Shown: in pieces, positions 9,182-57,665 of the stretch
Layout: each line of letters begins with the position of its first letter
How positions within the stretch are numbered: the stretch's first letter is position 1
IMG/VR virus record: IMGVR_UViG_3300047494_000263
Span: 11,426-75,425 of that record
From: a virus
Length of the DNA: 64,000 nt
Strand: one strand, 5' to 3'
Notes under the pieces: generated by a model
Databases searched by the model: none
What the model was told of the DNA's origin: nothing
What the model saw: only the letters and a program-made list of their open reading frames with translations
Position numbers and translations under genes: made by a program

Positions 9182-9351
9182 TGCACATCCTGTCCGTTTG
9201 ATCGAAAACAAGATATCTAATGCACGCCTGGAGTTCAAGTGGTCTTAATGGTGCTCTGTGCTGCCGGTTTCCTGTTTTCATTAAACAATCGAAGGGCTCC
9301 CATTTATACTTATCGTTTGATGACCGCGCAGAGCGCGCTGACGGACGCTTG

Positions 9352-24221: not shown

Positions 24222-24320
24222 AAAAAAGCATAGCCGATGCGTGGCAGCACGTCAGGCGCTTACCGGTCATTCCGGGCATGTGCTTGGGGTGGAAAGATGT
24301 CAGCTCGTGTCCTATGTTTT
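24222..24320. promoter_or_regulatory. back-to-back copies of the recurrent promoter motif
   Basis: + strand GGGTGGA(24287)-N18-CTATGTTTT; - strand CGCCTGA-N18-CTATGCTTTT (24258 to 24222). Confidence 0.55.
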
Positions 24321-31461: not shown

Positions 31462-32136
31462 CTAGCTGCTCGAGTCTAGGGCCAATCGGATGGTTGCGGC
31501 TGTCTTTGGGCCGACGCCCTTGACGGCGCGTAGCTCGTCCTCAGACGCCGCGAAGATCGCGCGGACGGATCCAAAGTGACCGAGCAGGGCTTTCGCGGTG
31601 CTCGCCCCGCAACCTGGTAGGCCTTCGACGATGTAGCGAGCTGCTGATGGCCCGGATTTGGGCTTCGGCGAAGCCCGCAGCGGCAACTCGTACCCAAGAC
31701 CGTGTGTCGCATGGATGGCCATGCGCCAGATCAGATGCGGCGTTCTTGCCACGCTGGGTGACCACATCAGGTCGACGGCAGACAGAAGCGAGATGTAGGA
31801 CAGAGCGCCGTCGATGGCTTCCGGGGTGATCGCGCTGCGGGTCTTGTACGGATCGCCCTCGATGAGAACGATGCTGTGCCTGTATTCGATCTGCATGCGC
31901 GCCATCTGCTCGAACAGATGTCCACTCATGACGCTATTGACGAAGTCGGTCGCTTCTTTACGCTCGATCGCCACACCCTCGGCAATCACATAGTCACCGC
32001 TTGGAAGCTGTGCCTGGGTGGCTGTGACGCCAGGGAACTTCTGTAACGCTGCCAGCGTGCCGGCGCGCAGCTCCTGGCTGTCAACCGTGATGGTGACGGG
32101 CTTGACGCTGCTCTGCGCGCTGTCTTCTGCAGCCAT
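31462..32136 (-). CDS. ERCC4/XPF-type structure-specific endonuclease with tandem HhH
   Basis: VDSQE, GDY, ERKEATDF..S..G.LFEQ, LIEG; HhH2 LPGCG..FGSV..VKGVGPKTA. Confidence 0.9.
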   Translation of the reverse strand: MAAEDSAQSSVKPVTITVDSQELRAGTLAALQKFPGVTATQAQLPSGDYVIAEGVAIERKEATDFVNSVMSGHLFEQMARMQIEYRHSIVLIEGDPYKTRSAITPEAIDGALSYISLLSAVDLMWSPSVARTPHLIWRMAIHATHGLGYELPLRASPKPKSGPSAARYIVEGLPGCGASTAKALLGHFGSVRAIFAASEDELRAVKGVGPKTAATIRLALDSSS

Positions 32137-32223
32137 AGGATCCTCGGGATTGGCGCGCCCGCCAAGTTGCAGGCCGATGCAATCTACCAGTTCCGGCCGA
32201 AAAGTGACAAGCGAAGGCAACTC

Positions 32224-32257
32224 GCGTGGACGAATTCGAAGAAAGGGCTATCTTTTT
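32224..32257 (+). promoter_or_regulatory. recurrent promoter motif copy
   Basis: GCGTGGA-N17-CTATCTTTTT, 37 nt before ATG 32285. Confidence 0.55.
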
Positions 32258-32284
32258 CTGAGACCTAAGACTACGAAACGAGCC

Positions 32285-35200
32285 ATGAATAATCTTGTGA
32301 ACCCGAGCACGCTGCCCAGCGACGACGCCCCGGGTTTTGAGCGCATCGCGCACACCAACGTCGTTGAACCTGGCCAGTATTGGAAATGTGTCACCACGCC
32401 TGACATACCAAAGGGGGTGAAGCACCATTTCGAGGAAGGTTCAGTCCATCTCCTGACGGATATTCGCTTCTTCGATGGCAAGCTCCATGCGGTGGAGTTG
32501 CTCGACGATCCGGCCTGCGGCAAGGATCAGAGCGTTATTACTGTGACGATGCTCATGGAATCGTTCGAGTTGGTTTCAATCGAACAGGCGCAGGCCCGCC
32601 GCCAGGAACAGCTTAAGGAGATTCAAACCCGTGTGGACGACATCCAGACCGAAATGAGGGAGGCCGCCATGGACCCCGCTCGCCTCGCCGGTGTCGTGGA
32701 AAAGGGTGTGCGTGAATGGGAAGAATCGGTTGCGCGTGAGGCGGAGGCGCGTGCACCGAAGGGAGAGAAGCCCAAGCGCCGCAATAAGGACAATCTTCCT
32801 GCCGTAACCACTAACGGCCGCTTCGATTTGACCGCGGCGGTAGCCAATAAGATTTCATCGACCGACGTCGCCATCTTTGCGCACCAGGCTCAAAAGCAGG
32901 GGAGGATCGCCGAGATCCGCGCCAATTGGTTGAAGAACAAGATGGAAGACATGGCCCGGGTCATGAAACTCATGACGCCGTTCTATGCAGAGCACGCTGC
33001 TCTTGGGATCGCTCGCGCTCACGAAGCCATGCATACGGCCAAGGAGATTGAAAAAGGACTGCGATCGCTGCGTCTTTACACCGGCGAATCCGTGACGGTC
33101 GTTCCGATCGCCACGGGTAAGAGCGCGCCATCAACCGAACCGCTGACGATTTTCCAACGTAAGTTGTTCGTGAACGAAGAGTTGGCTGTGTTCGCTCGAG
33201 TGGGGGCTGACTTTGATATCGAGAACATCGGGGAATTCAAGGACGTCCTGGCACAGAACACAGATCTGCAGCAACAGATTCTGCCCGCGCAGCGTGGCGT
33301 GGTGGCCCTTGCGATGCGCCGCGATGACGCGAAGTACGACAGCAAGTCATTGGCCGAGATGATCGATGCACACGACAAAAACGAACTGAACAAGCGCGTT
33401 TTTCTGTTGGTGCGGAATGGCGAGAATTTCAGCCTGGTCTACTCGGGCGAGCCTTCACACGAATTGGCGGAGCGGCTTTTCCCGACGCGTAATGAAATCG
33501 AAGGTGTCTTCGATGGCGTCGACGGCGACACCATCAACTTCAACGATCTCCGATTTTCGAGGCGCGCGTCGGCCTACGACGATAAGTCGCTGGCGTACAA
33601 GCGCTTCTTGATCCTCTTGGCCGGGCTTGCCCATCGCAAGAAACTCTTCGGCGACTTCTACCCGGCCAGTGAGGAGATGAATTTCATCTCGAGAGGTTTT
33701 CAGCGCAAGTACATGCGCTTTGTCTCAGACGATGATGGTGATGTCATGCTGGGCGACACCGTTGGCGACGTCTTGAAGCTCATCGAACACAATCAAACCC
33801 AGTTGGCGGCCGGCTGCCGCGTGATCGTCTTTTGCGACGAGGCGCTTTATCAGCAAGACGCTGTGCCTGGGGTGTGGGACAAGGGGTACCGAGGTAGCGA
33901 TGGACGGCGTTATTACAGAAAGCTTTGCGAGGCGCATTCGCCGGTCGTGATACAGACAGTCAAGCTGAGCAAAGGTGATCTGGTGGTCGAGATACCGGTG
34001 CGCCGTGACACTCAACGTGGTCGACGCTCCCAACGGCTTGTGCGTCCGGACTTCAATGCCCGCCTAGCGCTCAACAAGTTGCAGACTGGTGGCGATTGGG
34101 GGCTCTGCTACCTGGTGATCGACGATCTCGAAGTCGAATCGCTGCGGCCATTCATCTTCAATCGGCGCTCGCGAGCGCATCAGATCAGCTACATCCACGG
34201 TTTCAAGCAGGCGTTGGCCGCGCTCGGTCCTGAGGAGGCAGCGAACAAGCCAACTCGAGCAATGATTCAAGAGAGGTTGGTCACACATTACAACCTGAAC
34301 GCAGAGCAGGCTCGTATTGCCGCAACCTCTGCCATTCAGACATGGCGCCTCAAGAATCCCGAAGACGGGATGCTTCCTGAGTTGGGAAGCCCTTTGTTTC
34401 CATCGCTGGATTTGGAGCTTGCTGAGGCTGCACATGCATTTTCGAACGCCCTGCATAAGGTGCTGGCCAGTGTCGAAGCGGTCGGCGGCGTCCCTTACCG
34501 TGTTTCGCGCGGCAAGCGCGGAGCCTTGATTGCCTACTACGAGCCGCCGCTCGCTGAGCGAGATTTGAGGTTCGTGGACTGGAGAATGTCCGGCCGCCGG
34601 ATATTCAACTCCTCTGGTGTGCCATCCAAGACCGCAGCTGAAAGTGTCTGGGTCGAGCGTGGCTCTGCCATGGGGGAGACCACGATATGGAGCCAGCCCA
34701 GCACATTCGAGCAGGCTCAAGGGTCCGCGCGCGAAATGCATAGGCGCGGGGCATTCGTGAACGGCGGCTATTACGAGGAGGCCATGGCGCCAGGGGAGTC
34801 CCCTATCGCCGGTGTGCAGACGCGGCTGGATCTGGTGTCGGAGCTGGCCGAATATCTTTCGGACGCCTTCAAGGGAGAGCGCCAGGGGGTGAGCGATCGC
34901 ATGTGGACGCTGACGGCCGACTTCCTGGGGCGGCACCACAGAGGCAACTCGGCGGTCGGGCGGCTGAAACGGACCTATCTGCTACCTTTGGCGGCGGATA
35001 CCGATGGTGTCAGCGTGATTGGCATCCACGTGTGCCTAGCGGACTTGTTTTACTACTACGCATCGGACGCTCAGCGCGCGGTGTTGCTCGCGGCGCTGCG
35101 GGCTGACGCATCCAAAAGCGAAGATGAAGACGATCTGATGGAGGAGCTGGGGAAGCATCTGGAACTGAGGCCCGCGCTGAACTCAGTGCGCAACCCGATC

Positions 35201-35452
35201 TGGGTTGGTCCCTTGCAACTGGATCCGTCCTGCTTCGGCTACGGCTCGAATCTACCAACGCTTAAGTCGGGTGAGAACCGGCTCAATCGCAGTTTTGAGC
35301 AGTTCTTTGCATCGGTGAATCCACGTCAGGACGGCCCGTTCATTCGAGATACCTTCACCGAGCCGCGGACGTTCTGGATACCGGGCACGCTACGTGACAA
35401 GGATGGCAATATCTCGATTTCGAGGCTCTTTCCCGGGCTGCCAACAGCGTAG
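32285..35452 (+). CDS. large hypothetical protein (about 1055 aa) with N-terminal coiled coil
   Basis: Long ORF; coiled coil then LRLYTGE.V..EPL.IFQRKLF.NEEL block. Confidence 0.8.
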   Translation: MNNLVNPSTLPSDDAPGFERIAHTNVVEPGQYWKCVTTPDIPKGVKHHFEEGSVHLLTDIRFFDGKLHAVELLDDPACGKDQSVITVTMLMESFELVSIEQAQARRQEQLKEIQTRVDDIQTEMREAAMDPARLAGVVEKGVREWEESVAREAEARAPKGEKPKRRNKDNLPAVTTNGRFDLTAAVANKISSTDVAIFAHQAQKQGRIAEIRANWLKNKMEDMARVMKLMTPFYAEHAALGIARAHEAMHTAKEIEKGLRSLRLYTGESVTVVPIATGKSAPSTEPLTIFQRKLFVNEELAVFARVGADFDIENIGEFKDVLAQNTDLQQQILPAQRGVVALAMRRDDAKYDSKSLAEMIDAHDKNELNKRVFLLVRNGENFSLVYSGEPSHELAERLFPTRNEIEGVFDGVDGDTINFNDLRFSRRASAYDDKSLAYKRFLILLAGLAHRKKLFGDFYPASEEMNFISRGFQRKYMRFVSDDDGDVMLGDTVGDVLKLIEHNQTQLAAGCRVIVFCDEALYQQDAVPGVWDKGYRGSDGRRYYRKLCEAHSPVVIQTVKLSKGDLVVEIPVRRDTQRGRRSQRLVRPDFNARLALNKLQTGGDWGLCYLVIDDLEVESLRPFIFNRRSRAHQISYIHGFKQALAALGPEEAANKPTRAMIQERLVTHYNLNAEQARIAATSAIQTWRLKNPEDGMLPELGSPLFPSLDLELAEAAHAFSNALHKVLASVEAVGGVPYRVSRGKRGALIAYYEPPLAERDLRFVDWRMSGRRIFNSSGVPSKTAAESVWVERGSAMGETTIWSQPSTFEQAQGSAREMHRRGAFVNGGYYEEAMAPGESPIAGVQTRLDLVSELAEYLSDAFKGERQGVSDRMWTLTADFLGRHHRGNSAVGRLKRTYLLPLAADTDGVSVIGIHVCLADLFYYYASDAQRAVLLAALRADASKSEDEDDLMEELGKHLELRPALNSVRNPIWVGPLQLDPSCFGYGSNLPTLKSGENRLNRSFEQFFASVNPRQDGPFIRDTFTEPRTFWIPGTLRDKDGNISISRLFPGLPTA

Positions 35453-38027: not shown

Positions 38028-38339
38028 ATGAGTTGCAATCGAGAAAACGTCATCTGGAAAGACCGGACCGGAAAGTGGTCCATTGGCTTTTTTGACTTCC
38101 ACCAGAACGGAGATGATCCTGAATGGGATGTGGAATACGACCATTCCAGCTTTAACTTCGCATCGGTCGGCCACGATTCCGCGGAGTCGGCTTACGCGGC
38201 GTGGCGCGGCACCAATCCAGGCGGTTCTGTCATCTGCACCGAACCCACGGCCGAGACGGATAGATACGACGAAATGGCCGCGAAGTATATCGCCGCCGAG
38301 CGCGCCTTACGCGCTTCGTCACGCCGGATGGGAATGTAG
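38028..38339 (+). CDS. hypothetical protein
   Basis: GGAG RBS; 103 aa. Confidence 0.65.
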   Translation: MSCNRENVIWKDRTGKWSIGFFDFHQNGDDPEWDVEYDHSSFNFASVGHDSAESAYAAWRGTNPGGSVICTEPTAETDRYDEMAAKYIAAERALRASSRRMGM

Positions 38340-38367
38340 TTCTGAGCGCGGCGCGCCATCGAATCTC

Positions 38368-38400
38368 GGGTGGACGAAACTTCGTGGCTGGATATCCTTT
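38368..38400 (+). promoter_or_regulatory. recurrent promoter motif copy
   Basis: GGGTGGA-N17-ATATCCTTT before ATG 38422. Confidence 0.55.
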
Positions 38401-38421
38401 CTTCAACGAAAAGGAAATCAC

Positions 38422-38619
38422 ATGCCACTCTTTGAATGCGAAGTAAAAATCCGGGTCGAAGCTGACGATAGTGACTCAGCTCGTAGCGAGGTCCTAGACG
38501 AAATTCTCGGCGGCTTAGTCGAGACCGGCATCATCAGAGGCGGCTCCCTGTTGCCTGGCTGTAAAGAGCTTGATGACGATTTTGAAGACGACGACGATGA
38601 TTCCGAGGATATCGGGTGA
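38422..38619 (+). CDS. small acidic protein
   Basis: AAGGA RBS; 65 aa, Asp/Glu-rich; overlaps next gene. Confidence 0.6.
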   Translation: MPLFECEVKIRVEADDSDSARSEVLDEILGGLVETGIIRGGSLLPGCKELDDDFEDDDDDSEDIG

Positions 38620-39608
38620 GCGCCTCCCCACTAGCTGGCCTATATCTGACGAACATCTCCTGCCTCCCTGCTGACCAGAAGAATGCGTATGTGGGGGACG
38701 GCGTGACGATGCGTGTCGGCATCCCGCACAAGAGTGGCAAGCTGGCAGCACACGCATTCAATGAGGGCTACCCAGCAATGGTGAGCGCCAATGCGTTCTG
38801 GAACGCGCGTGCAGGCGAGTTTCGATTTCCACAATACACAGACTTGATGGATATCGACTGGGCGCTCGACAGTGCCGGTTACACCGCAATCAAGATGTGG
38901 CAGGAGAAGGGCACCCAGGTCGGCATGGCCGGCGTCTTCCCGTGGACCTATCAGCAATACATCGAGTTGGCATCAGAGGCGCGGGCATCATGGTATTCAG
39001 CGCCGGACCTATGCTGCGAGCCCGAAATCGCGTCGAATCAGACCGCGATCGATTACCGGCTTGATGCCACCGCAACCCTTTTGTACGGCTGCCTCGAGGT
39101 GATCTACGACTGGCAGTCGCAGCTGGCCATAGAGTGCTCGCCATCGATCGTTGCTGACGTCATCCGTCCGCCGGTCCCCGTCATTCAGGGTTATAGCATC
39201 TCAGACTACCTGCGTAGTCTCGATCAGACCATGGAGGTCTGGAACTGCTGGGCTGATTGGCTTGCGCCTCCCGCATTGATCGGGCTGGGGTCGGTGTGCC
39301 GCCGGGATCTTAATCATCCGAAGCACGGCTTGTACGCCATCCTGGAGGGTCTGGACGGCAATATCCCGGCCGGCACAAAGGTTCATCTGTTTGGCGTGAA
39401 GGGCGAGTGCCTAAGCCGCATCAAGATGTACGACTGGGTGGTCGGAGCAGATTCGATGGCCTTCGATTACGGTGCACGCATGAAGGCGGTCAAGGCTGGT
39501 CATTCGAACACCATGGAGCACCGCTCGATCGAGATGACGCATTGGATGGAAAAAGCGAAGGCACGCCTCGCCCCGAGTGCCGGTGATCAATTCAGATTGA
39601 AGCTCTAG
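38616..39608 (+). CDS. DpdA/TGT-like deazaguanine transglycosylase family protein
   Basis: TGT-barrel motifs ALDSAGY, PDLCCEP, PVIQG, IGLGSVCRR, VHLFGVK, ADSMA. Confidence 0.75.
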   Translation: MSASPLAGLYLTNISCLPADQKNAYVGDGVTMRVGIPHKSGKLAAHAFNEGYPAMVSANAFWNARAGEFRFPQYTDLMDIDWALDSAGYTAIKMWQEKGTQVGMAGVFPWTYQQYIELASEARASWYSAPDLCCEPEIASNQTAIDYRLDATATLLYGCLEVIYDWQSQLAIECSPSIVADVIRPPVPVIQGYSISDYLRSLDQTMEVWNCWADWLAPPALIGLGSVCRRDLNHPKHGLYAILEGLDGNIPAGTKVHLFGVKGECLSRIKMYDWVVGADSMAFDYGARMKAVKAGHSNTMEHRSIEMTHWMEKAKARLAPSAGDQFRLKL

Positions 39609-39626
39609 CTTCTCAAAGGACGTGCC

Positions 39627-39950
39627 ATGATTATAGTGAAGGACACACACCAGGTTGAACCAAGGGTTCCAGGTACGAAGGGTTTCGCCTGGCTCAAGAT
39701 CATCGCGGGCTGGCCGGGGACAAAGTTCAATTTCCAGGAAACCAGGCTCGAGGTCGAGCCGTGGCATTCCGGCGTCAGCGTGGACGTCACGATCACGAGC
39801 CACTACCCTGAAACGAATGCCAGATCCGCACACGGGAGTCTGAGCATGGAGCCCGAGCAAGCTCGCATCCTGGCGCGCCAGCTTATCGACCTTGCAGATC
39901 GCTTCGACGCAAAACCAGGTTCTACTACCGCTGCTGTTGCAAGCGTCTGA
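39627..39950 (+). CDS. hypothetical protein
   Basis: AAGGA RBS; 107 aa. Confidence 0.55.
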   Translation: MIIVKDTHQVEPRVPGTKGFAWLKIIAGWPGTKFNFQETRLEVEPWHSGVSVDVTITSHYPETNARSAHGSLSMEPEQARILARQLIDLADRFDAKPGSTTAAVASV

Positions 39951-41559
39951 GAGAGCGGTTCAACTCGGAGACTTGATCAGAGACGGCCCGCAGTAGCAGA
40001 ACTGTCTTGTGGCGCGTCAGCCCGGCATCGTCCGTCGCCTTGGGCACTCGCAGCAAGCCTTGCATCATCTCAAAAGCGGATACGGCGCCGGGCGCTGAGT
40101 TCGACGTTTTTACGCCAGAATTCCAAATAAGACTCAGAAACCTCCACCACGCGCTCAAGGCATCGTCGACCGCGCGTTTGTGGGATGCGTAGCCTCCCCT
40201 GGCGAGCACAACCTGTACGGTGCTATCGATGCACAAAAGGGTTTGGCCCGTTGCTTTCACGGCATCTGCCAGGGTTGCCTCTGGATCCATGCAGCCAGAC
40301 GAGAGCACTCCAATTAGTTTCGCCTTAAGTGCGTCGAGGTTGAGTGCCGTAACTTCTGGAGGCGGACTTGATTCGGAAAATCTGTCCGCATCTGGCTTGG
40401 TCGTCGTCTCAGGCTCCGCTGGCTTCTTGGGAGCGTCCTCCTTTTTTTGCGCCGTCTCCTTGCGCGCAACAGGCTCCGGCTTCTCGACGGGCTTTTCCGG
40501 TGGTTTTGGCCGGGGACGCTTTTCGATGATGGCCCTTACCAGCTCGAGATCGTCTGCGGCAAGATTCGGGAACTTGTCGGGCGCCTTCACACTAACCGAC
40601 AAGTGGAGATCGCCGCGTCGACCTTTTAGGTCTTTTGGTAACCCCAAGCCGCTAAAGCAAATATCCCCACCTTGGGCTGTTCGCGGCTGTACGACGACCT
40701 CCAGGGTTTGTCGAAGATGTTTGTGGTGCAGGACGCAACCGAACCACGCCTGAAAGTAGTCAATTTCGATCGCAGACCAGATGTCGAATCCACTCTCAAA
40801 CATTGGCTCGTTGACGACAATGTGGACCTTGACCTTCAAATCACCCGTTTTCCCGCCGCGTAGTCCGTCTGCGCCGCCGCCTGGAACTGTGATCTCGATG
40901 CCATCGGGCGTTAATTTCGGAATACGAAAATCGACCACTCTTTGGCGCTCTGTGCGGCCTGAGTCCTTGCATGTACGGCATCCGGAGTAGGTTCGTTGAC
41001 CGTCGCCTAGACAGCTGGAGCATGTGAATTCCTTACGGCCGTAGCGACCGCCGTAACGAAAGCCACGCCCGCTGCACGATGTGCAGGTCTTGGTGTAAGT
41101 CCCCTCGCAAGAGCCGGAACACGTTCTACAAGTTTGCTCGACTTTGACTTTGACGGTCTTCTCTGCGCCGAAGATGCAGTCCTCCAGCGAGATGTCGAGG
41201 TCTATCCGCGCATGTGCGCCATTGACTGGCGGATTGTAGTACTGCCTTGACGTATCATCGCCCCGCCAATGCCCATCGAAGCCCGGATTGAAGCCCGGTG
41301 AATAGTGAGTCGAGGAATCGTCCGAGGAGTCTTCGTCCTCATCGTCATCGTCATCCTGGTCGGGCGAATACGAGCCGTCTCGCAATTTTTCGTATGCCAT
41401 TTGATTGGCAACGAACTTCATGTGACTCCCGCGAGGATCGTTCGGATGCTTGTCGGGATGCCACTGCTGCGCGCGACGCCGGTAGGCGGCTTTGATCTCG
41501 TCGGCGGTCGATCCTGGTTGAATACCGAGGACTTCGTATGGATCGCTAGCGCTGGACAT
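39925..41559 (-). CDS. DnaJ-like co-chaperone with C-terminal extension
   Basis: J domain DPYEVLG..EIKAAYR..WHPD; four CxxCxGxG-like repeats; DnaJ C-terminal GDL motifs. Confidence 0.85.
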   Translation of the reverse strand: MSSASDPYEVLGIQPGSTADEIKAAYRRRAQQWHPDKHPNDPRGSHMKFVANQMAYEKLRDGSYSPDQDDDDDEDEDSSDDSSTHYSPGFNPGFDGHWRGDDTSRQYYNPPVNGAHARIDLDISLEDCIFGAEKTVKVKVEQTCRTCSGSCEGTYTKTCTSCSGRGFRYGGRYGRKEFTCSSCLGDGQRTYSGCRTCKDSGRTERQRVVDFRIPKLTPDGIEITVPGGGADGLRGGKTGDLKVKVHIVVNEPMFESGFDIWSAIEIDYFQAWFGCVLHHKHLRQTLEVVVQPRTAQGGDICFSGLGLPKDLKGRRGDLHLSVSVKAPDKFPNLAADDLELVRAIIEKRPRPKPPEKPVEKPEPVARKETAQKKEDAPKKPAEPETTTKPDADRFSESSPPPEVTALNLDALKAKLIGVLSSGCMDPEATLADAVKATGQTLLCIDSTVQVVLARGGYASHKRAVDDALSAWWRFLSLIWNSGVKTSNSAPGAVSAFEMMQGLLRVPKATDDAGLTRHKTVLLLRAVSDQVSELNRSLRRLQQQR

Positions 41560-44243: not shown

Positions 44244-44891
44244 ATGCGTGACATACCCATGATCTTCAGTGGCCCGATGGTTCGGGCATTGCTGGAAGGG
44301 CGGAAGTCGCAGACGCGGCGCCTGGTCAAGCTTCCGAAGCGACTGACGCAGGGAGACCTGAATACCGCGCGACCGGACAAAATGTGGGGTATCACGCCAG
44401 GTCTTCATGTCCCGATGCCATCAGAAGATATCTCGCGCCGCCTCCGCAACCCATACGGCTTTCCTGAGCCCTGCCGCATCTGGGTCAAGGAGACCACCTT
44501 GGATGTCGAGTCGTCAGGCTGGGTCGGCCCAGTCTATGTCGAGTCCCAGCAGGGTGCGGCAGCTGTTCAATGGGGTTATGGCGAGAGCGATGATCCCGAT
44601 TTCATCGAGCCGTTTCGGCTAAAGAAGCGTTCGTCCATGTTCATGCCTCGCAAGTACGCCAGGCTTACTTTGAACGTGGTCAATGTCTCGGCTGAGCGCT
44701 TGCAGTCGATTTCGCCGGCCGACGTGAGAGCGGAGGGACTCGTGGTCGATGGCGACTTGGCCAACACACAGTTGGTCGACGAATACGCGAGGGTATGGGA
44801 AGGTCTGCACGGTGCGGGATCCTGGGCTGCTAATCCCTTTGTCTGGCGAATCGAATTCTCAGTACATGCCCTGACGGGTGACCTGCAATGA
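44244..44891 (+). CDS. phage-type ASCH/PUA-like protein, copy 1
   Basis: PMIFSGPMVRALLEGRKSQTRR..WVKET..FMPR..RLTL..ERLQ.IS..AEG..W.ANP.VW.IEF. Confidence 0.8.
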   Translation: MRDIPMIFSGPMVRALLEGRKSQTRRLVKLPKRLTQGDLNTARPDKMWGITPGLHVPMPSEDISRRLRNPYGFPEPCRIWVKETTLDVESSGWVGPVYVESQQGAAAVQWGYGESDDPDFIEPFRLKKRSSMFMPRKYARLTLNVVNVSAERLQSISPADVRAEGLVVDGDLANTQLVDEYARVWEGLHGAGSWAANPFVWRIEFSVHALTGDLQ

Positions 44892-45577
44892 AGACCAAGC
44901 AGAGCACCAGCAGCCCGATCTGCCTCTCACCCGGGGAGATTCGTCAGATCCTCAATGGTCTAAAGACTCAAATCAGGTTGCCCCTTGATCCGCAGCCAGT
45001 CACCTTTGACCAGGGTGGTCATGAGTATTGCAGCGTTGCCATTCATGGCGCGACCCATTCAGGTTCCGCTGGATATTTGCTCAATCATGTAAAGTCGAAG
45101 TTCGACAATCCATATTTCGCCGAAGAGCGCGACACCGAGCTTTGGATACAGGAGCCGTGGATCGCGCTGCAACGTCGGACACTTCAGAATCCTTCGGTGG
45201 ATATCTCGGCCGCAGACGGCGCGGTGGCGAATGACGTCCTGCTTGGATACGAGGCGACATCGATGGTCAATGCCCCTACCTTGATGGATGGTACATATTG
45301 GGACGGCGAGTGGAATCGGCCTTCGTCGATGCCTCGCTGGGCGAGCCGCCTCACGCTGTTCATGACCGACGCACGCATCGAGCGCCTGCAAAACATCCAG
45401 GATGACGAAGCCATCCGCGAGGGTGCGCCATACTTCGGTCAGGGTGGAATTGCCGCTCGAGCCAGCTTTGCGTTGCGTTGGAATGAGTCTTGTGCCAGCG
45501 CGGTGCAATGGTCGGCCAATCCATTTGTTTGGGTTTTGTCCTTTGTGCCACTGTTGAGGGGGCGTCCAATTGGCTAA
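44888..45577 (+). CDS. phage-type ASCH/PUA-like protein, copy 2
   Basis: ILNGLKTQIR..LWIQEPW..MPRWASRLTL..ERLQNI..A.REG..W.ANPFVWV. Confidence 0.8.
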   Translation: MKTKQSTSSPICLSPGEIRQILNGLKTQIRLPLDPQPVTFDQGGHEYCSVAIHGATHSGSAGYLLNHVKSKFDNPYFAEERDTELWIQEPWIALQRRTLQNPSVDISAADGAVANDVLLGYEATSMVNAPTLMDGTYWDGEWNRPSSMPRWASRLTLFMTDARIERLQNIQDDEAIREGAPYFGQGGIAARASFALRWNESCASAVQWSANPFVWVLSFVPLLRGRPIG

Positions 45578-45761: not shown

Positions 45762-46340
45762 ATGCAGGTTAATCCCCAGTCCGGACTATTCGGAGAAGCG
45801 GATATGGGCGCGCGCTTTTCCGAGTGCCGCAAGTACCGCTATCAACTGTGGCGCATTTGGGAGCCGTCACTCCCCCTCGCTGTGTTCGTAATGATGAACC
45901 CATCGACTGCAGACGAGATTACCAACGATCCAACGATCACGCGTCAGGTACGTCGAGTCACAAAATGGAAGTCGATTTCCGGTGGCGTACTGGTCGACGG
46001 AGAGGATATCTCGCAGCGGTTGGGTGGCGTTATGATCGTGAACGTCTTTGCTTGGCGCGAGACGGACTCGAAGCTATTGAAGGGGTTGGTGGCAAAGGGT
46101 GTGGATATCGTCGGGCCGGAGAACGATCAAGCCATTCTTGAAGCTGTGTCAAAAGCGGCGATCGTCGTTTGTGGCTGGGGGATCCCTGGTGGCTTGGGCG
46201 ATCGAGGAAACCGCGTTCTCAAATTGATCGCAAAAGCAGGCGTTCGACCGCATGCACTAAAATTTAATGATGACGGATCACCGGGCCACCCGCTCTATCT
46301 CGGGTATGACGTCATGCCAGTGCCGATTGTCTTGACGTAG
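45762..46340 (+). CDS. DUF1643 domain protein
   Basis: FSECRKYRY.L.R.W, MMNPSTAD..DPT, NVFA.R.TD, GPEND, CGWG, PGHPLYL. Confidence 0.9.
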   Translation: MQVNPQSGLFGEADMGARFSECRKYRYQLWRIWEPSLPLAVFVMMNPSTADEITNDPTITRQVRRVTKWKSISGGVLVDGEDISQRLGGVMIVNVFAWRETDSKLLKGLVAKGVDIVGPENDQAILEAVSKAAIVVCGWGIPGGLGDRGNRVLKLIAKAGVRPHALKFNDDGSPGHPLYLGYDVMPVPIVLT

Positions 46341-46779: not shown

Positions 46780-47046
46780 ATGGCAATTGCGCAAAACCAC
46801 GCCGTCAGCGGCGAAACCGAATGTGACGGCAACATGTTCGAAGAAGTCACCCCATTCGACCCAAGTCCGCTCATGATTCGCGCTGGTGCCATCTCCTTGG
46901 CCGTCAGTAAGGATGGATACCTTCGTCTGTCCGAATTCGGACGAAATGCGTTCGACGAGAAGGCCCGTAAGGTTTTCCTTGCCATGATGAAGGCCGATCC
47001 AGGTTTCGTTGAGCGACTCGCCCAGTCCGTAGCCTCGGCCGGGTGA
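46780..47046 (+). CDS. hypothetical protein
   Basis: 88 aa, coupled to next gene. Confidence 0.55.
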   Translation: MAIAQNHAVSGETECDGNMFEEVTPFDPSPLMIRAGAISLAVSKDGYLRLSEFGRNAFDEKARKVFLAMMKADPGFVERLAQSVASAG

Positions 47047-47777
47047 GTAAATCCCTTCCGGTCGCCGATGTTGTAGTCCGCGAGCGGCCGCTGATCCTGA
47101 GTGCTGAGATGGTCCGTGGCGTCATCGCCGGCCGTAAATCGCAGCTGCGACGGCTCGTCGGGCCTGAGACGCCATTTCGCGTCGAGACTGGTGCGAATGC
47201 AAAGTGGCATTGGACCTCCCCGTCACTCCCGAACGGCGCATGCCGCGTGGGATGGGGGGAACTCGTAGAGTTGATGAAGACCCGCTGCCCGCTTGGCGCC
47301 GTTGGCGACCATCTATGGATCCAGGAGCAGTTCGCAGAGGTGGGCAATGGCGCCAAGCGCCAGACGCTCTACCGGGCAACCCATGTCAAGAGTCATGTCG
47401 CAGGTCGTGGTGCGCGAGACTCCAGCCCCATCAAATGGTCGCTCGCCCGTCAAATGCTCAAGCCGATGAGTCGTCTCTCGCTCGAGATTCGAGGCGTATG
47501 CGCCACTCGACTACATGGGATATCTGAGGGCGATGCGATCGCCGAAGGCATTTTCAAATCCAAGGACGGCTGGGTTTGGGATGCACAGAATCCGGAGTCA
47601 CAGGGCTCGGCAACTCTAATCGAGACATTTAAAACCTCCCAAGAGGCATTCGAAGCAATGTGGCGCCGCTTTTACGGTCAGGCGGCCTGGGATACGAACC
47701 CTATCGTATGGAAGATAGATTTTGCGCCAATCGTCCGATCGGTCGGAGCGCTGTGCTCAACTGTGATCACTTCGTGA
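47043..47777 (+). CDS. phage-type ASCH/PUA-like protein, copy 3
   Basis: ERPLILSAEMVRGVIAGRKSQLRR..CPLGAVGDHLWIQE..SRLSLEI..IS..DAIAEG..WDTNP.VW.IDF. Confidence 0.8.
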   Translation: MSKSLPVADVVVRERPLILSAEMVRGVIAGRKSQLRRLVGPETPFRVETGANAKWHWTSPSLPNGACRVGWGELVELMKTRCPLGAVGDHLWIQEQFAEVGNGAKRQTLYRATHVKSHVAGRGARDSSPIKWSLARQMLKPMSRLSLEIRGVCATRLHGISEGDAIAEGIFKSKDGWVWDAQNPESQGSATLIETFKTSQEAFEAMWRRFYGQAAWDTNPIVWKIDFAPIVRSVGALCSTVITS

Positions 47778-48742: not shown

Positions 48743-49525
48743 TCACGCCGCCGGCGAGACGGGTACCGCGTCGTGTTCCAACCCATCCAGGAGCCGCCCT
48801 GCGGCCTTGCGGCCAACGCGCTTGCCGTCGAGATGCTCGCCGTGCTGTTTAAAGTGGAATGCTACGCTGGCTTGAGCACACTCGTCCCGTAAAGACCTCG
48901 CCCAGTCGGTGTTCATTGGCCTTGCGCCAGGTCCGGACTCGCCACCGACAATGACCCAAGAAATCCCCGTTGACCAGTCAGGCAGGGCCCCTAGCGTCAC
49001 GCTGCTGAGCAGAGGCTCCATTGAGAGGAAACGCAGTACTGCGGGTAACGCCATGAGCTTCGGGCCGTCGCGCAGCCACTCCTCGGGGGTGACGACACTG
49101 ATGCCAATCCAAGCATTTAGGTAGCCCGTACCCCAATCAGGCGGTAGCATCGACTTGGCATTGCCAATGCGTTTGGTGAGGAGCAGCCAATCGAGGTGAG
49201 GCGTCGCCTTGATGAGTTTCCATAGGCGCTCTCTCGCCCCTTCAGGGGCCTTGTTATCGAAGACGTCGCCCATGCTGAGGCAGAAGACGCGCTCGCGAAT
49301 GCCGGTCGCAGCAGCGCGGCGCTCCCACTTCAAAGGCTCGTCCCAGTGCTTGTCGCCGAACTCTCGGCGCTCAGAACCAACACCCCAGAGAACCTTGCCA
49401 GCGGCGAAGCGTTTCGCGTCGCGCTCGGCGTAACAATTTTCACACGCCAAACTTCCCGTTGATACACAGCCCCACCAGCTGTTAAATGTGTGCGAACTCC
49501 ACGAGATGAGAGTGCCTTCGCTCAC
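48743..49525 (-). CDS. phage Gp37/Gp68 family (DUF5131) radical-SAM-like protein
   Basis: ISW..TFN.W.GC..CENCYA, VFC.SMGDVF, TPHLDWLLLTKR, RFLSMEPLL, WVIVGGESG..ARPM, FKQ.G. Confidence 0.92.
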   Translation of the reverse strand: MSEGTLISWSSHTFNSWWGCVSTGSLACENCYAERDAKRFAAGKVLWGVGSERREFGDKHWDEPLKWERRAAATGIRERVFCLSMGDVFDNKAPEGARERLWKLIKATPHLDWLLLTKRIGNAKSMLPPDWGTGYLNAWIGISVVTPEEWLRDGPKLMALPAVLRFLSMEPLLSSVTLGALPDWSTGISWVIVGGESGPGARPMNTDWARSLRDECAQASVAFHFKQHGEHLDGKRVGRKAAGRLLDGLEHDAVPVSPAA

Positions 49526-49738: not shown

Positions 49739-49826
49739 AAAACAAGATAGGAGGGTGCGCACAAGTCGTCCACCCGAGTCCTGCGTTTTCTTACCCTGGA
49801 AGGCGGGCGAGTCTCGGGCTATCTTG
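49739..49826. promoter_or_regulatory. back-to-back copies of the recurrent promoter motif
   Basis: - strand GGGTGGA(49775-49769)-N18-CTATCTTGTTTT; + strand CCCTGGA(49794)-N18-CTATCTTG. Confidence 0.55.
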
Positions 49827-56701: not shown

Positions 56702-56736
56702 GGGTGGATGAACGTGTGTTGATCGCCTATGTTTTC
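56702..56736 (+). promoter_or_regulatory. recurrent promoter motif copy
   Basis: GGGTGGA-N18-CTATGTTTT. Confidence 0.6.
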
Positions 56737-56786: not shown

Positions 56787-57665
56787 TTGAACGTGACACC
56801 AGAACGAATCACCGCACTTCAAGCATGGTTTGACCAGGCATGTGCGTTTTGTGAAGAGACCCAAAAGGGATTGAAGTCTCTCAGCGAGGCCATCTCAACA
56901 GCCTTCGGACCCAAGCACGACCTCTATGATCGCAATCTGAGTAATGATCTGCCCAAGGAACTACGCGAGTCGGCTGCAGAGGACGTCGTTAAATTCGTCA
57001 TTCGCCAAGCCGAGCGCGAATACTCGTCGGCGAATTCGCTGACGATTGATGAGAACGAGGTTCTTAGGGCGCTGGCAGGCGGCTATGACCCGTTCGGGCG
57101 CGATCATGACTACGGCAATTCCCAATACCGTCCGCCGATGCCTTTGCATGTGGTCCAGACCGTGGGTGTGGCTGGCGTTGCCGAATATTTAGAGAAGAAC
57201 TATGGCGGAAAAAATGGGATCGAAGCGGAGCGCCAGCAGGCCGCAGACGATCTTTATTCCGCGTTCTCCATGGCCTATCACAAGCCGACGTGGAGCAAGG
57301 GTCGCCTTCTCATCAACTTACACGCGTATACCGAGGTTAAAGAGTACGGCGAGAACAAGGGCGAGCGGGTACTCCAGTACGGCAGCCGTGAGGGTATCAC
57401 TAAGGCTCTCAGCGCCATGGGCGTCTTCCTCGAATGCTATGGCGAGGAGAACACCGACAGCGGCGCCCACCTCATTCGCCCGATTATTTCCTACTGGGCT
57501 CAGTACGACCCTGTCGTGAAATCACGCCAGAAATGGGAGGTGCTGGAGGGTCTTTACTTCACGACGTTCAGTGACAAATTCGTGTGGAGCTTCGATGAGG
57601 CAATCGCACGCGAGTTCATGGCATTCGTGAGCACCTATTGCAGCCGGATGAAGGCGGCGGCGTGA
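56787..57665 (+). CDS. hypothetical protein, paralog B, coupled to MTase-helicase
   Basis: GVAG.A..E..Y.G.NG.E.ER..KPTW..EFM.F.S.Y shared with paralog A. Confidence 0.7.
   Translation: MNVTPERITALQAWFDQACAFCEETQKGLKSLSEAISTAFGPKHDLYDRNLSNDLPKELRESAAEDVVKFVIRQAEREYSSANSLTIDENEVLRALAGGYDPFGRDHDYGNSQYRPPMPLHVVQTVGVAGVAEYLEKNYGGKNGIEAERQQAADDLYSAFSMAYHKPTWSKGRLLINLHAYTEVKEYGENKGERVLQYGSREGITKALSAMGVFLECYGEENTDSGAHLIRPIISYWAQYDPVVKSRQKWEVLEGLYFTTFSDKFVWSFDEAIAREFMAFVSTYCSRMKAAA

Follow-up and report, generated by a model that had tools for sequence, protein, structure and literature searches.

Modification of DNA with 7-deazaguanine bases is well known from phages and from the Dpd island of bacteria. 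The phage DpdA1 proteins, such as those of Escherichia phages 9g and CAjan and of Mycobacterium phage Rosebush, are small, stand-alone TGT-like enzymes without a CxCxxC motif, and their insertion of dPreQ0 or dG+ has been validated experimentally, with no need for DpdB (PMC6884629). Deletion of the CAjan gene abolishes dPreQ0 in the phage DNA (PMC6884629). The 9g DpdA, VH7D DpdA2 and nt-1 DpdA2 enzymes, each alone in E. coli, load plasmid DNA with dPreQ0, and VH7D DpdA2 inserts mainly dPreQ1 (PMC6884629, PMC10516641). The DpdA of the Salmonella Montevideo defence island is a TIM barrel with three conserved aspartates, Asp95 (general acid/base), Asp130 (base recognition) and Asp256 (nucleophile), for which a double displacement on double-stranded DNA has been proposed (PMC10164549). 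Other DpdAs, termed 'singleton' by Hutinet et al. 2019, are encoded without a precursor pathway, and their modification status 'is difficult to predict' (PMC6884629). Here we describe a DpdA-like gene in a 64,000-nucleotide stretch of IMG/VR record IMGVR_UViG_3300047494_000263 (positions 11,426 to 75,425; the whole stretch is called the window below, and all coordinates refer to it unless a locus is named).

On balance, and by a modest degree, we think it probable that this gene encodes a stand-alone, Orion-type DNA guanine transglycosylase of family PF23859 that would place a host-made 7-deazaguanine into the DNA of the element carrying it, blunting restriction. Drawing on the chemistry of the family and on genomic context, we propose the mechanism with moderate confidence. 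The gene is probably transcribed from an element-specific promoter common to other DNA-modification genes. The enzyme would flip out guanine in double-stranded DNA and form a covalent intermediate between Asp279 and the deoxyribose, to be resolved with a host-made 7-deazaguanine base, most likely preQ0. The DNA of the element, and probably that of the host too, would become marked, and restriction after transfer would be blunted. An earlier reading of the sequence by itself, hereafter the original prediction, had described an orphan DpdA/TGT-like gene in a minimal anti-restriction cassette of three genes. Its premise that phage DpdAs can act alone agrees with the 9g, VH7D and nt-1 enzymes, which insert preQ0-type bases (PMC6884629, PMC10516641).

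Enzyme family, fold and catalytic residues

The 330-aa product matches the Pfam DpdA family PF23859 over residues 80-299 (E=1.6e-15; 57.3 bits, cut-off 27) and phrog_1279, 'queuine tRNA-ribosyltransferase' (E=6e-17). PF23859 is carried by all 120 homologues listed, some of them named DpdA family or DUF7221 by NCBI. An AlphaFold model from 23 homologues reached a predicted local distance difference test score (pLDDT) of 89 and a predicted template modelling score of 0.88. The top 50 Foldseek matches to the DpdA model were all TGTs at probability 1.0, with Zymomonas TGT structures leading. VIA-align placed it on the archaeosine TGT 1iq8 with Z 20.7 and a root mean square deviation of 3.5 A over 264 residues, and on the bacterial TGT 1p0b with Z 20.5 (264-274 residues across both alignments). 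A non-TGT fold was not borne out, and model and family match together give a sound prediction of a genuine, intact DpdA-family member with a TGT-type (beta/alpha)8 TIM barrel.

All six TGT-type motifs named in the original prediction can be read in the translation: DSAG at 85-88, PD at 130-131, QG at 191-192, GLGS at 223-226, HLFG at 257-260 and DS at 279-280. Across an alignment of 49 relatives with 30-59% identity, the invariant residues comprise S57, D85, G88, D131, E135, R148, Q191, G192, Y198, G225, S226, C228, R230, H257, F259, D279, S280 and W310. When the family profile is aligned with the CAjan DpdA, LDSAGF pairs with LDSGAF and HLFGVKG...ADSMAW with HAFGIT...CDSSSW, so that D85 and D279 fall within the CAjan motifs, and D131 aligns with the Asp of FDEC in TGT. 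With the phage DpdA1 enzymes the likeness is at the level of these catalytic motifs (LDSGAF and HxFG...DSxxW) only; DpdA1 has a His where the window family has a TGT-like Gln, and DpdA1 genes sit inside full preQ0/G+ pathways, whereas the window gene does not. By motif, D85, D131 and D279 appear to be the counterparts of Asp95, Asp130 and Asp256 in the Salmonella Montevideo enzyme, and Y89 takes the place of the gating Phe of that protein, which is hydrophobic and follows the first Asp by four positions (PMC10164549). The alignments show the likely retention of the roles known from TGT and from validated DpdAs, with D85 as acid/base, D131 and Q191 in base recognition and D279 as nucleophile. 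The window protein differs from the Salmonella enzyme in having no DpdB or DpdC beside it and no CXCX2CX22H zinc site, in being shorter by ~70-100 residues, and in its plasmid rather than defence-island context.

The best structural matches are the bacterial and archaeosine TGTs, with which PD(L)CCEP lines up against FDECTP, QG against QGG and HLFG against YLMG at ~10-12% identity; alignment of the DpdA family to five host TGTs with hhalign gave 0.2% probability with the motifs in register and serves as a motif guide only. The TGT fold and the TGT-like Gln at the 'QG' position would also suit a tRNA-modifying enzyme, acting at position 34 or 15 and retuning host translation for the benefit of the element. 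We regard this as extremely improbable, given that the TGT zinc subdomain is missing, that the host genomes searched already have a separate canonical TGT, and that the company kept by the family consists of DNA-modification enzymes (Dcm, Mom) and polyvalent proteins.

Within the DpdAs, the window protein is one more member of the annotated PF23859 family, and its novelty is low. The PF23859 model recognises the Orion gene of Mycobacterium phage at 1.9e-142 and nothing in Rosebush, CAjan, Salmonella phage 7-11 or Vibrio phage nt-1; in a 312-sequence set, our own family profile gives 2e-36 for Orion, 0.0026 for CAjan and 3.9 for Rosebush. Because both single out Orion among these phages, we assign the window protein by sequence to the 'singleton' group of Hutinet et al. 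2019 (PMC6884629). Orion DpdA (PF23859, formerly DUF7221) and the window protein have in common LDSxGF, PxDxxCEP, PVxQG, VGxGSVCRR, HxFGVK and ADSMAW, and both are encoded without preQ0 pathway genes. They are ~28% identical; the window protein has extra insertions at residues ~95-105 and ~150-180 and does not have the Cys/His-rich tail of Orion DpdA, and its likely hosts make preQ0, whereas Mycobacterium smegmatis, the host of Orion, does not (PMC6884629). A maximum-likelihood tree places it in a plasmid clade with 100/99 support, separate from Orion.

The DpdA unit and its flanking open reading frames

The enzyme gene lies between two small open reading frames (ORFs) on the same strand, behind a promoter-like motif:

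38368..38400, plus strand: variant copy of an element-wide promoter-like motif, 54 nt before the acidic ORF
38422..38619, plus strand: 65-aa acidic ORFan with an ATG start and an AAGGAAA Shine-Dalgarno sequence
38616..39608, plus strand: DpdA-family (PF23859) guanine transglycosylase-like enzyme of 330 aa with a GTG start; catalytic candidates D85, D131 and D279
39627..39950, plus strand: 107-aa ORFan with its own AAGGA Shine-Dalgarno sequence, 18 nt downstream of the DpdA gene

The TGA stop of the acidic ORF and the DpdA start codon, GTG, overlap (GTGA), and a GAGGA Shine-Dalgarno sequence precedes this GTG at proper spacing. The GTG is the required start because P18, Q21 and N23, invariant in 23 close homologues, precede the first downstream ATG. 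The three ORFs are predicted to be co-transcribed in the window element. The 3' end of the 107-aa ORF overlaps by 26 nt a convergent gene (39925-41559, minus strand) for a 544-aa DnaJ-like protein, which has a J domain, a zinc-finger region, a DnaJ C-terminal domain and a long extra C-terminus and matches phrog_14336. A longer frame of 178 aa (38083-38619), ending with the acidic ORF, was considered as a real gene and rejected: the G+C content by codon position of its upstream part looks non-coding, and the upstream differences in sequencing run X2 suit a 103-aa frame instead.

Apart from the window, the arrangement was found only in run X2, from another study, where a ~97% variant of the element has contigs that span both junctions, between promoter and acidic ORF and between acidic ORF and DpdA. 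The comparison with runs X2-X5 covers the contig-covered parts of the stretch, and the X2 contigs are of low depth, so that single differences may be errors. Six of the seven differences in the DpdA gene fall at third codon positions, and the gene is under purifying selection. The variant keeps the 65-aa ORF with one extra in-frame GAT (Asp) codon in the acidic tail (window 38595), a tract that is length-variable, and the stretch 38360-38411 is unchanged while both its flanks differ. The retained frame, the in-frame insertion and the unchanged promoter stretch make the acidic ORF probably a real, expressed, lineage-specific small gene; its low G+C content at the second codon position is likewise consistent with coding.

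The original prediction had rightly pointed to a coupled, highly acidic ORF at this place. The peptide contains 22 D/E (34%) and five basic residues, with an isoelectric point (pI) of 4.05 and a net charge of ~-17, its acidity concentrated in a 15-residue tail (DDDFEDDDDDSEDIG) at the C-terminus. Like Ocr and ArdA it is strongly acidic and encoded by a mobile element, and its translational coupling to DpdA behind a promoter-like motif, together with its persistence in the near-identical X2 variant, would fit the proposal that it is a DNA mimic of that type, forming with DpdA a minimal three-gene anti-restriction cassette. A wider survey took this proposal no further. The 65-aa, 107-aa and upstream 103-aa ORFs found only themselves by BLAST among all ORFs of 61 related loci, and the 65-aa and 107-aa ORFs had no relative but themselves by tblastn in 72,556 plasmids or in a search of 5.8 billion protein clusters. 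The 65-aa ORF matches no Pfam family at E<=0.01, the ArdA and Ocr families included, and no PHROG, NCBIfam or PADLOC family; its ESM Atlas model has a pLDDT of 0.45, with look-alike scores at noise level. For the 107-aa ORF no reliable family or fold lead was obtained, and the look-alikes of both small ORFs all score <0.9 from poor models. The peptide, 65 aa long and with a tail that is probably disordered, is half the size of Ocr or ArdA or less, shows no similarity to them in sequence or fold, and is absent wherever else the DpdA gene occurs. We therefore hold a mimic within a minimal cassette to be very improbable: both small ORFs are ORFans, lineage-specific by these searches and not conserved DpdA partners, which leaves cassette and mimic without support. 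The three-gene unit of the original prediction thus stands as contiguous same-strand ORFs in this element, but relatives of the small ORFs occur in 0/61 loci, and the acidic neighbour, unique to the window element, does not generalise. A complex prediction for DpdA and the 65-aa ORF scored 0.00; it was run without controls and counts neither way.

The same prediction had placed the unit behind a regulon promoter. The motif itself is real: GGGTGGA-N18-CTAT(G/C)TTTT has five exact copies in the window, at 24287, 56702, 61166 and 62762 on the plus strand and at 49775 on the minus strand, and a relaxed GGGTGGA pattern gives 6 matches against 0.25 expected and a maximum of 2 in 200 shuffles. The copy at 38368 is only a variant, with an exact GGGTGGA, a 17-nt spacer and ATATCCTTTC (ATATCC), and no match to the sigma-70 consensus was found there. 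If functional, it would co-regulate the DpdA unit with the operon of an SNF2 helicase; the gene for this SNF2-family protein (57638-60913) lies behind the exact copy at 56702. A second repeat, the palindrome AAGATATCTT (at most one mismatch), occurs on a rough gene map at the intergenic positions 9210, 28271, 42609 and 55691 and also at 44425, five sites in the window against 1.26 expected; it may act as operator for a regulator that the element encodes. As the 'regulon promoter' it was rejected, since its site at 38390 has three mismatches, and the intended motif is the GGGTGGA element.

The SNF2 protein also bears on the idea that the element carries a dispersed restriction-modification defence resembling Dpd, in which DpdA would mark self and restriction would be supplied by, for example, this helicase. 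The common promoter motif would fit such a system, and the C-terminal helicase half of the protein has DpdE as its best PADLOC match (E=1.1e-16), followed by BrxH and DrmD, with a weak NCBIfam match to DpdE. These matches span a generic helicase half, however, and reach 30.6 bits against a cut-off of 500. The gene lies 18 kb from DpdA, and helicases or nucleases are not conserved neighbours in the 61 loci. Among ten window proteins compared with PADLOC, no Dpd component was found except this generic helicase similarity, DpdB not having been searched with its own model; the DpdA-like protein likewise has no PADLOC match. Pfam detects no methyltransferase domain in the SNF2 protein, for which one had been suggested. 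A dispersed defence system seems very unlikely to us.

Precursor supply and conserved neighbours

As the original prediction had noted for the window, the element carries no precursor pathway. Hidden Markov model searches covering all 75,425 bp of the record detected no QueC, TGT, FolE, PTPS/QueD, radical SAM (QueE) or PAPS reductase and no DpdC (DUF328, PF03883), DpdB not having been searched for specifically. Neighbours of the DpdB or DpdC type were found in none of the 61 related loci. A stand-alone enzyme would depend on its host for the base. QueC is present in all 10 genomes examined that have relatives of the gene (one of them, G009, unpublished) and TGT in 5/5, and QueC is also found in 13 of 14 control genomes.

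The best indication so far, a contextual one, that the clade works with bases of the preQ0 pathway and forms part of anti-restriction DNA modification comes from two loci. On a 49.6-kb phage contig (L095; 96% complete), a DpdA gene at 1470-2312 is followed directly by QueC at 2222-2899. Its product is 35% identical to the window protein and has in common with it every motif residue checked. No recognisable QueD, QueE or FolE was found in the ORFs next after QueC, and because QueC stands there without them, the phage would rely on the 7-carboxy-7-deazaguanine (CDG) of its host. In the second locus, an actinobacterial-type provirus (L163; G+C content 69%), one strand carries QueC, a GTP cyclohydrolase I fusion, Dcm, DpdA and Mom (L163:1991-12815). 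The DpdA there is of the Orion type, matching PF23859 at E=6e-94, Dcm is a C5 cytosine methylase, and the region looks like a multi-modification island. In the maximum-likelihood tree the two members lie on opposite sides of the deepest split of the family. Together with fusions of DpdA to Mom and to a polyvalent-protein domain (below), the QueC, FolE, Dcm and Mom neighbours fit a role in 7-deazaguanine modification of mobile-element DNA.

Clustering the 61 neighbourhoods de novo, as a greedy gene set, revealed no universal DpdA neighbour. The commonest, a ~600-aa protein with a PAPS-reductase domain, is encoded directly upstream on the same strand in 12 of the 61 loci and is absent from the window record:

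L021:4117-5919, same strand as the DpdA homologue: PAPS-reductase (N-terminal PP-loop) neighbour; also in L013, L020, L022, L024 and L031
L037, L040, L043, L050, L061 and L062, same strand as the DpdA homologue: PAPS-reductase neighbour in further loci

A PAPS-reductase family gene also lies 4 kb downstream of the DpdA homologue in Methylibium RPME01. Judged by its position, the ~600-aa protein may serve some members of the DpdA family as a second partner in DNA modification.

Several observations weigh against the insertion of a host-made 7-deazaguanine by the window enzyme. Host QueC discriminates little and shows only compatibility, because it is nearly universal, and 43 of the 45 viral records with a relative carry no QueC; in the other two it is close to the DpdA gene. 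Neither the protein nor a 23-sequence profile retrieved TGT or DpdA in sequence searches of solved structures, and no model in PADLOC, a library that covers the Dpd system, matches the 330-aa protein at E<=0.001, the choice of DpdA models in that library not having been checked. The CxCxxC of the zinc site (CXCX2C...H), seen in a host TGT control, was found neither in the window protein nor in its 49 relatives. Its absence is no argument against DpdA-type activity, since the CAjan, Rosebush, 7-11 and Orion enzymes also have no such site. Orion, the sole tested carrier in the PF23859 clade, had none of the five 7-deazaguanine nucleosides assayed in its DNA (PMC6884629). This negative is expected because M. 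smegmatis makes no preQ0 (PMC6884629), and the gene is nevertheless kept in ~390 mycobacteriophages. Finally, protection from restriction by way of host preQ0 is something we infer only, because the three-gene unit is not conserved, the acidic ORF is unmatched and activity has been demonstrated for no member of the clade (PMC6884629).

The negative Orion DNA and the retention of the gene in mycobacteriophages whose host makes no preQ0 mean that the clade may use another substrate. It could have diverged to a TGT-type exchange that uses a base outside the known set of 7-deazaguanines, or to a DNA glycosylase, and host preQ0 would then be irrelevant. The family has invariant pocket residues of its own, C134, E135, C228, R229 and R230, that differ from those of TGT and DpdA1, and the protein encoded directly upstream in the 12 PAPS-reductase loci is not a Que enzyme. 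The guanine-recognition Asp and Gln are retained, however, and QueC, or QueC with FolE, adjoins members on both sides of the deepest split, so that we consider such a divergence unlikely. Incorporation of a host-made 7-deazaguanine, probably preQ0, remains the explanation we favour.

Distribution, the carrier element and significance

The DpdA family is large: clustered at 50% identity, it has 1122 representatives at E<=1e-3, of which 176 reach <=1e-30. By tblastn, relatives occur on at least 103 plasmids, of which 44 are conjugative and 17 mobilizable (61 together). The carriers, mostly Burkholderiales and sphingomonads, include Sphingobium, Sphingomonas, Paraburkholderia, Streptomyces, Burkholderia, Cupriavidus and others. 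The closest relatives, at 59-64% identity, are in Methylibium RPME01 and on plasmids of Azospira, Cupriavidus, Paraburkholderia and Ralstonia. On the Paraburkholderia hospita plasmid pEMT1 the homologue is the last gene of an array that runs on one strand through topB, an ATPase, RelE, a zeta toxin, a 1676-aa helicase and small ORFs and adjoins Dot/Icm-type transfer genes. Fused forms are also found, with DpdA joined to an LPD1 polyvalent-protein domain in a 1297-aa protein (P0212) and to Mom in a 921-aa protein (P0217). Other long DpdA proteins (P0257, P0263 and P0236, in the range of 727-1754 aa) have no further recognised domain. Phages and conjugative elements use polyvalent proteins as effectors in the early phase of invasion (PMC5512222); a TGT domain is mentioned nowhere in the full text of that paper. 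This distribution leads us to a broader suggestion, which we offer tentatively and think rather doubtful as a whole: large conjugative plasmids and integrative and conjugative elements (ICEs) of Burkholderiales and sphingomonads may routinely load their own DNA with host preQ0 through a solo DpdA, and in the present element the acidic peptide would sit on the DNA-binding face of the enzyme and so tune it or act as its chaperone.

The IMG/VR record (75,425 bp) is classed as a provirus with a CheckV completeness of 62%. Its gene content looks plasmid- or ICE-like rather than phage-like: no phage structural proteins were found among the window proteins scanned, and other window genes encode DnaB, HipA, AbiEii, GGDEF-EAL, DUF1643 and DUF5131 proteins, beside the DnaJ-like protein and the SNF2 helicase described above. 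Upstream of the locus, a 1144-aa protein (32018-35452) without a family match is related (28-33% identity) to proteins on 1249 plasmids, of which 1083 are conjugative, mostly from Klebsiella, Enterobacter, Escherichia and Providencia; by this distribution it appears to be a common component of plasmid backbones. A megablast search with window 28000-52000 found no match among plasmids or phages. The identical DpdA protein is recorded from a 500,633-bp contig. The host is probably of Burkholderiales type, and the sample appears to come from a moss metagenome. Elsewhere in the window, a 3.5-kb region contains three phrog_874 paralogues (44244-44891, 44888-45577 and 47043-47777) on either side of a DUF1643 gene (45762-46340), with a DUF5131 gene (48743-49525) close by.

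We found no paper on plasmid-borne solo DpdAs, and anti-restriction by base hypermodification has so far been documented only for phages. The window gene raises the question, an easily testable one, of whether plasmids hypermodify their own DNA by means of solo DpdAs. If plasmid DNA is indeed modified with a host metabolite in this way, the role of the 'singleton' DpdA clade would be settled, and hypermodification would join the known anti-restriction repertoire of plasmids.

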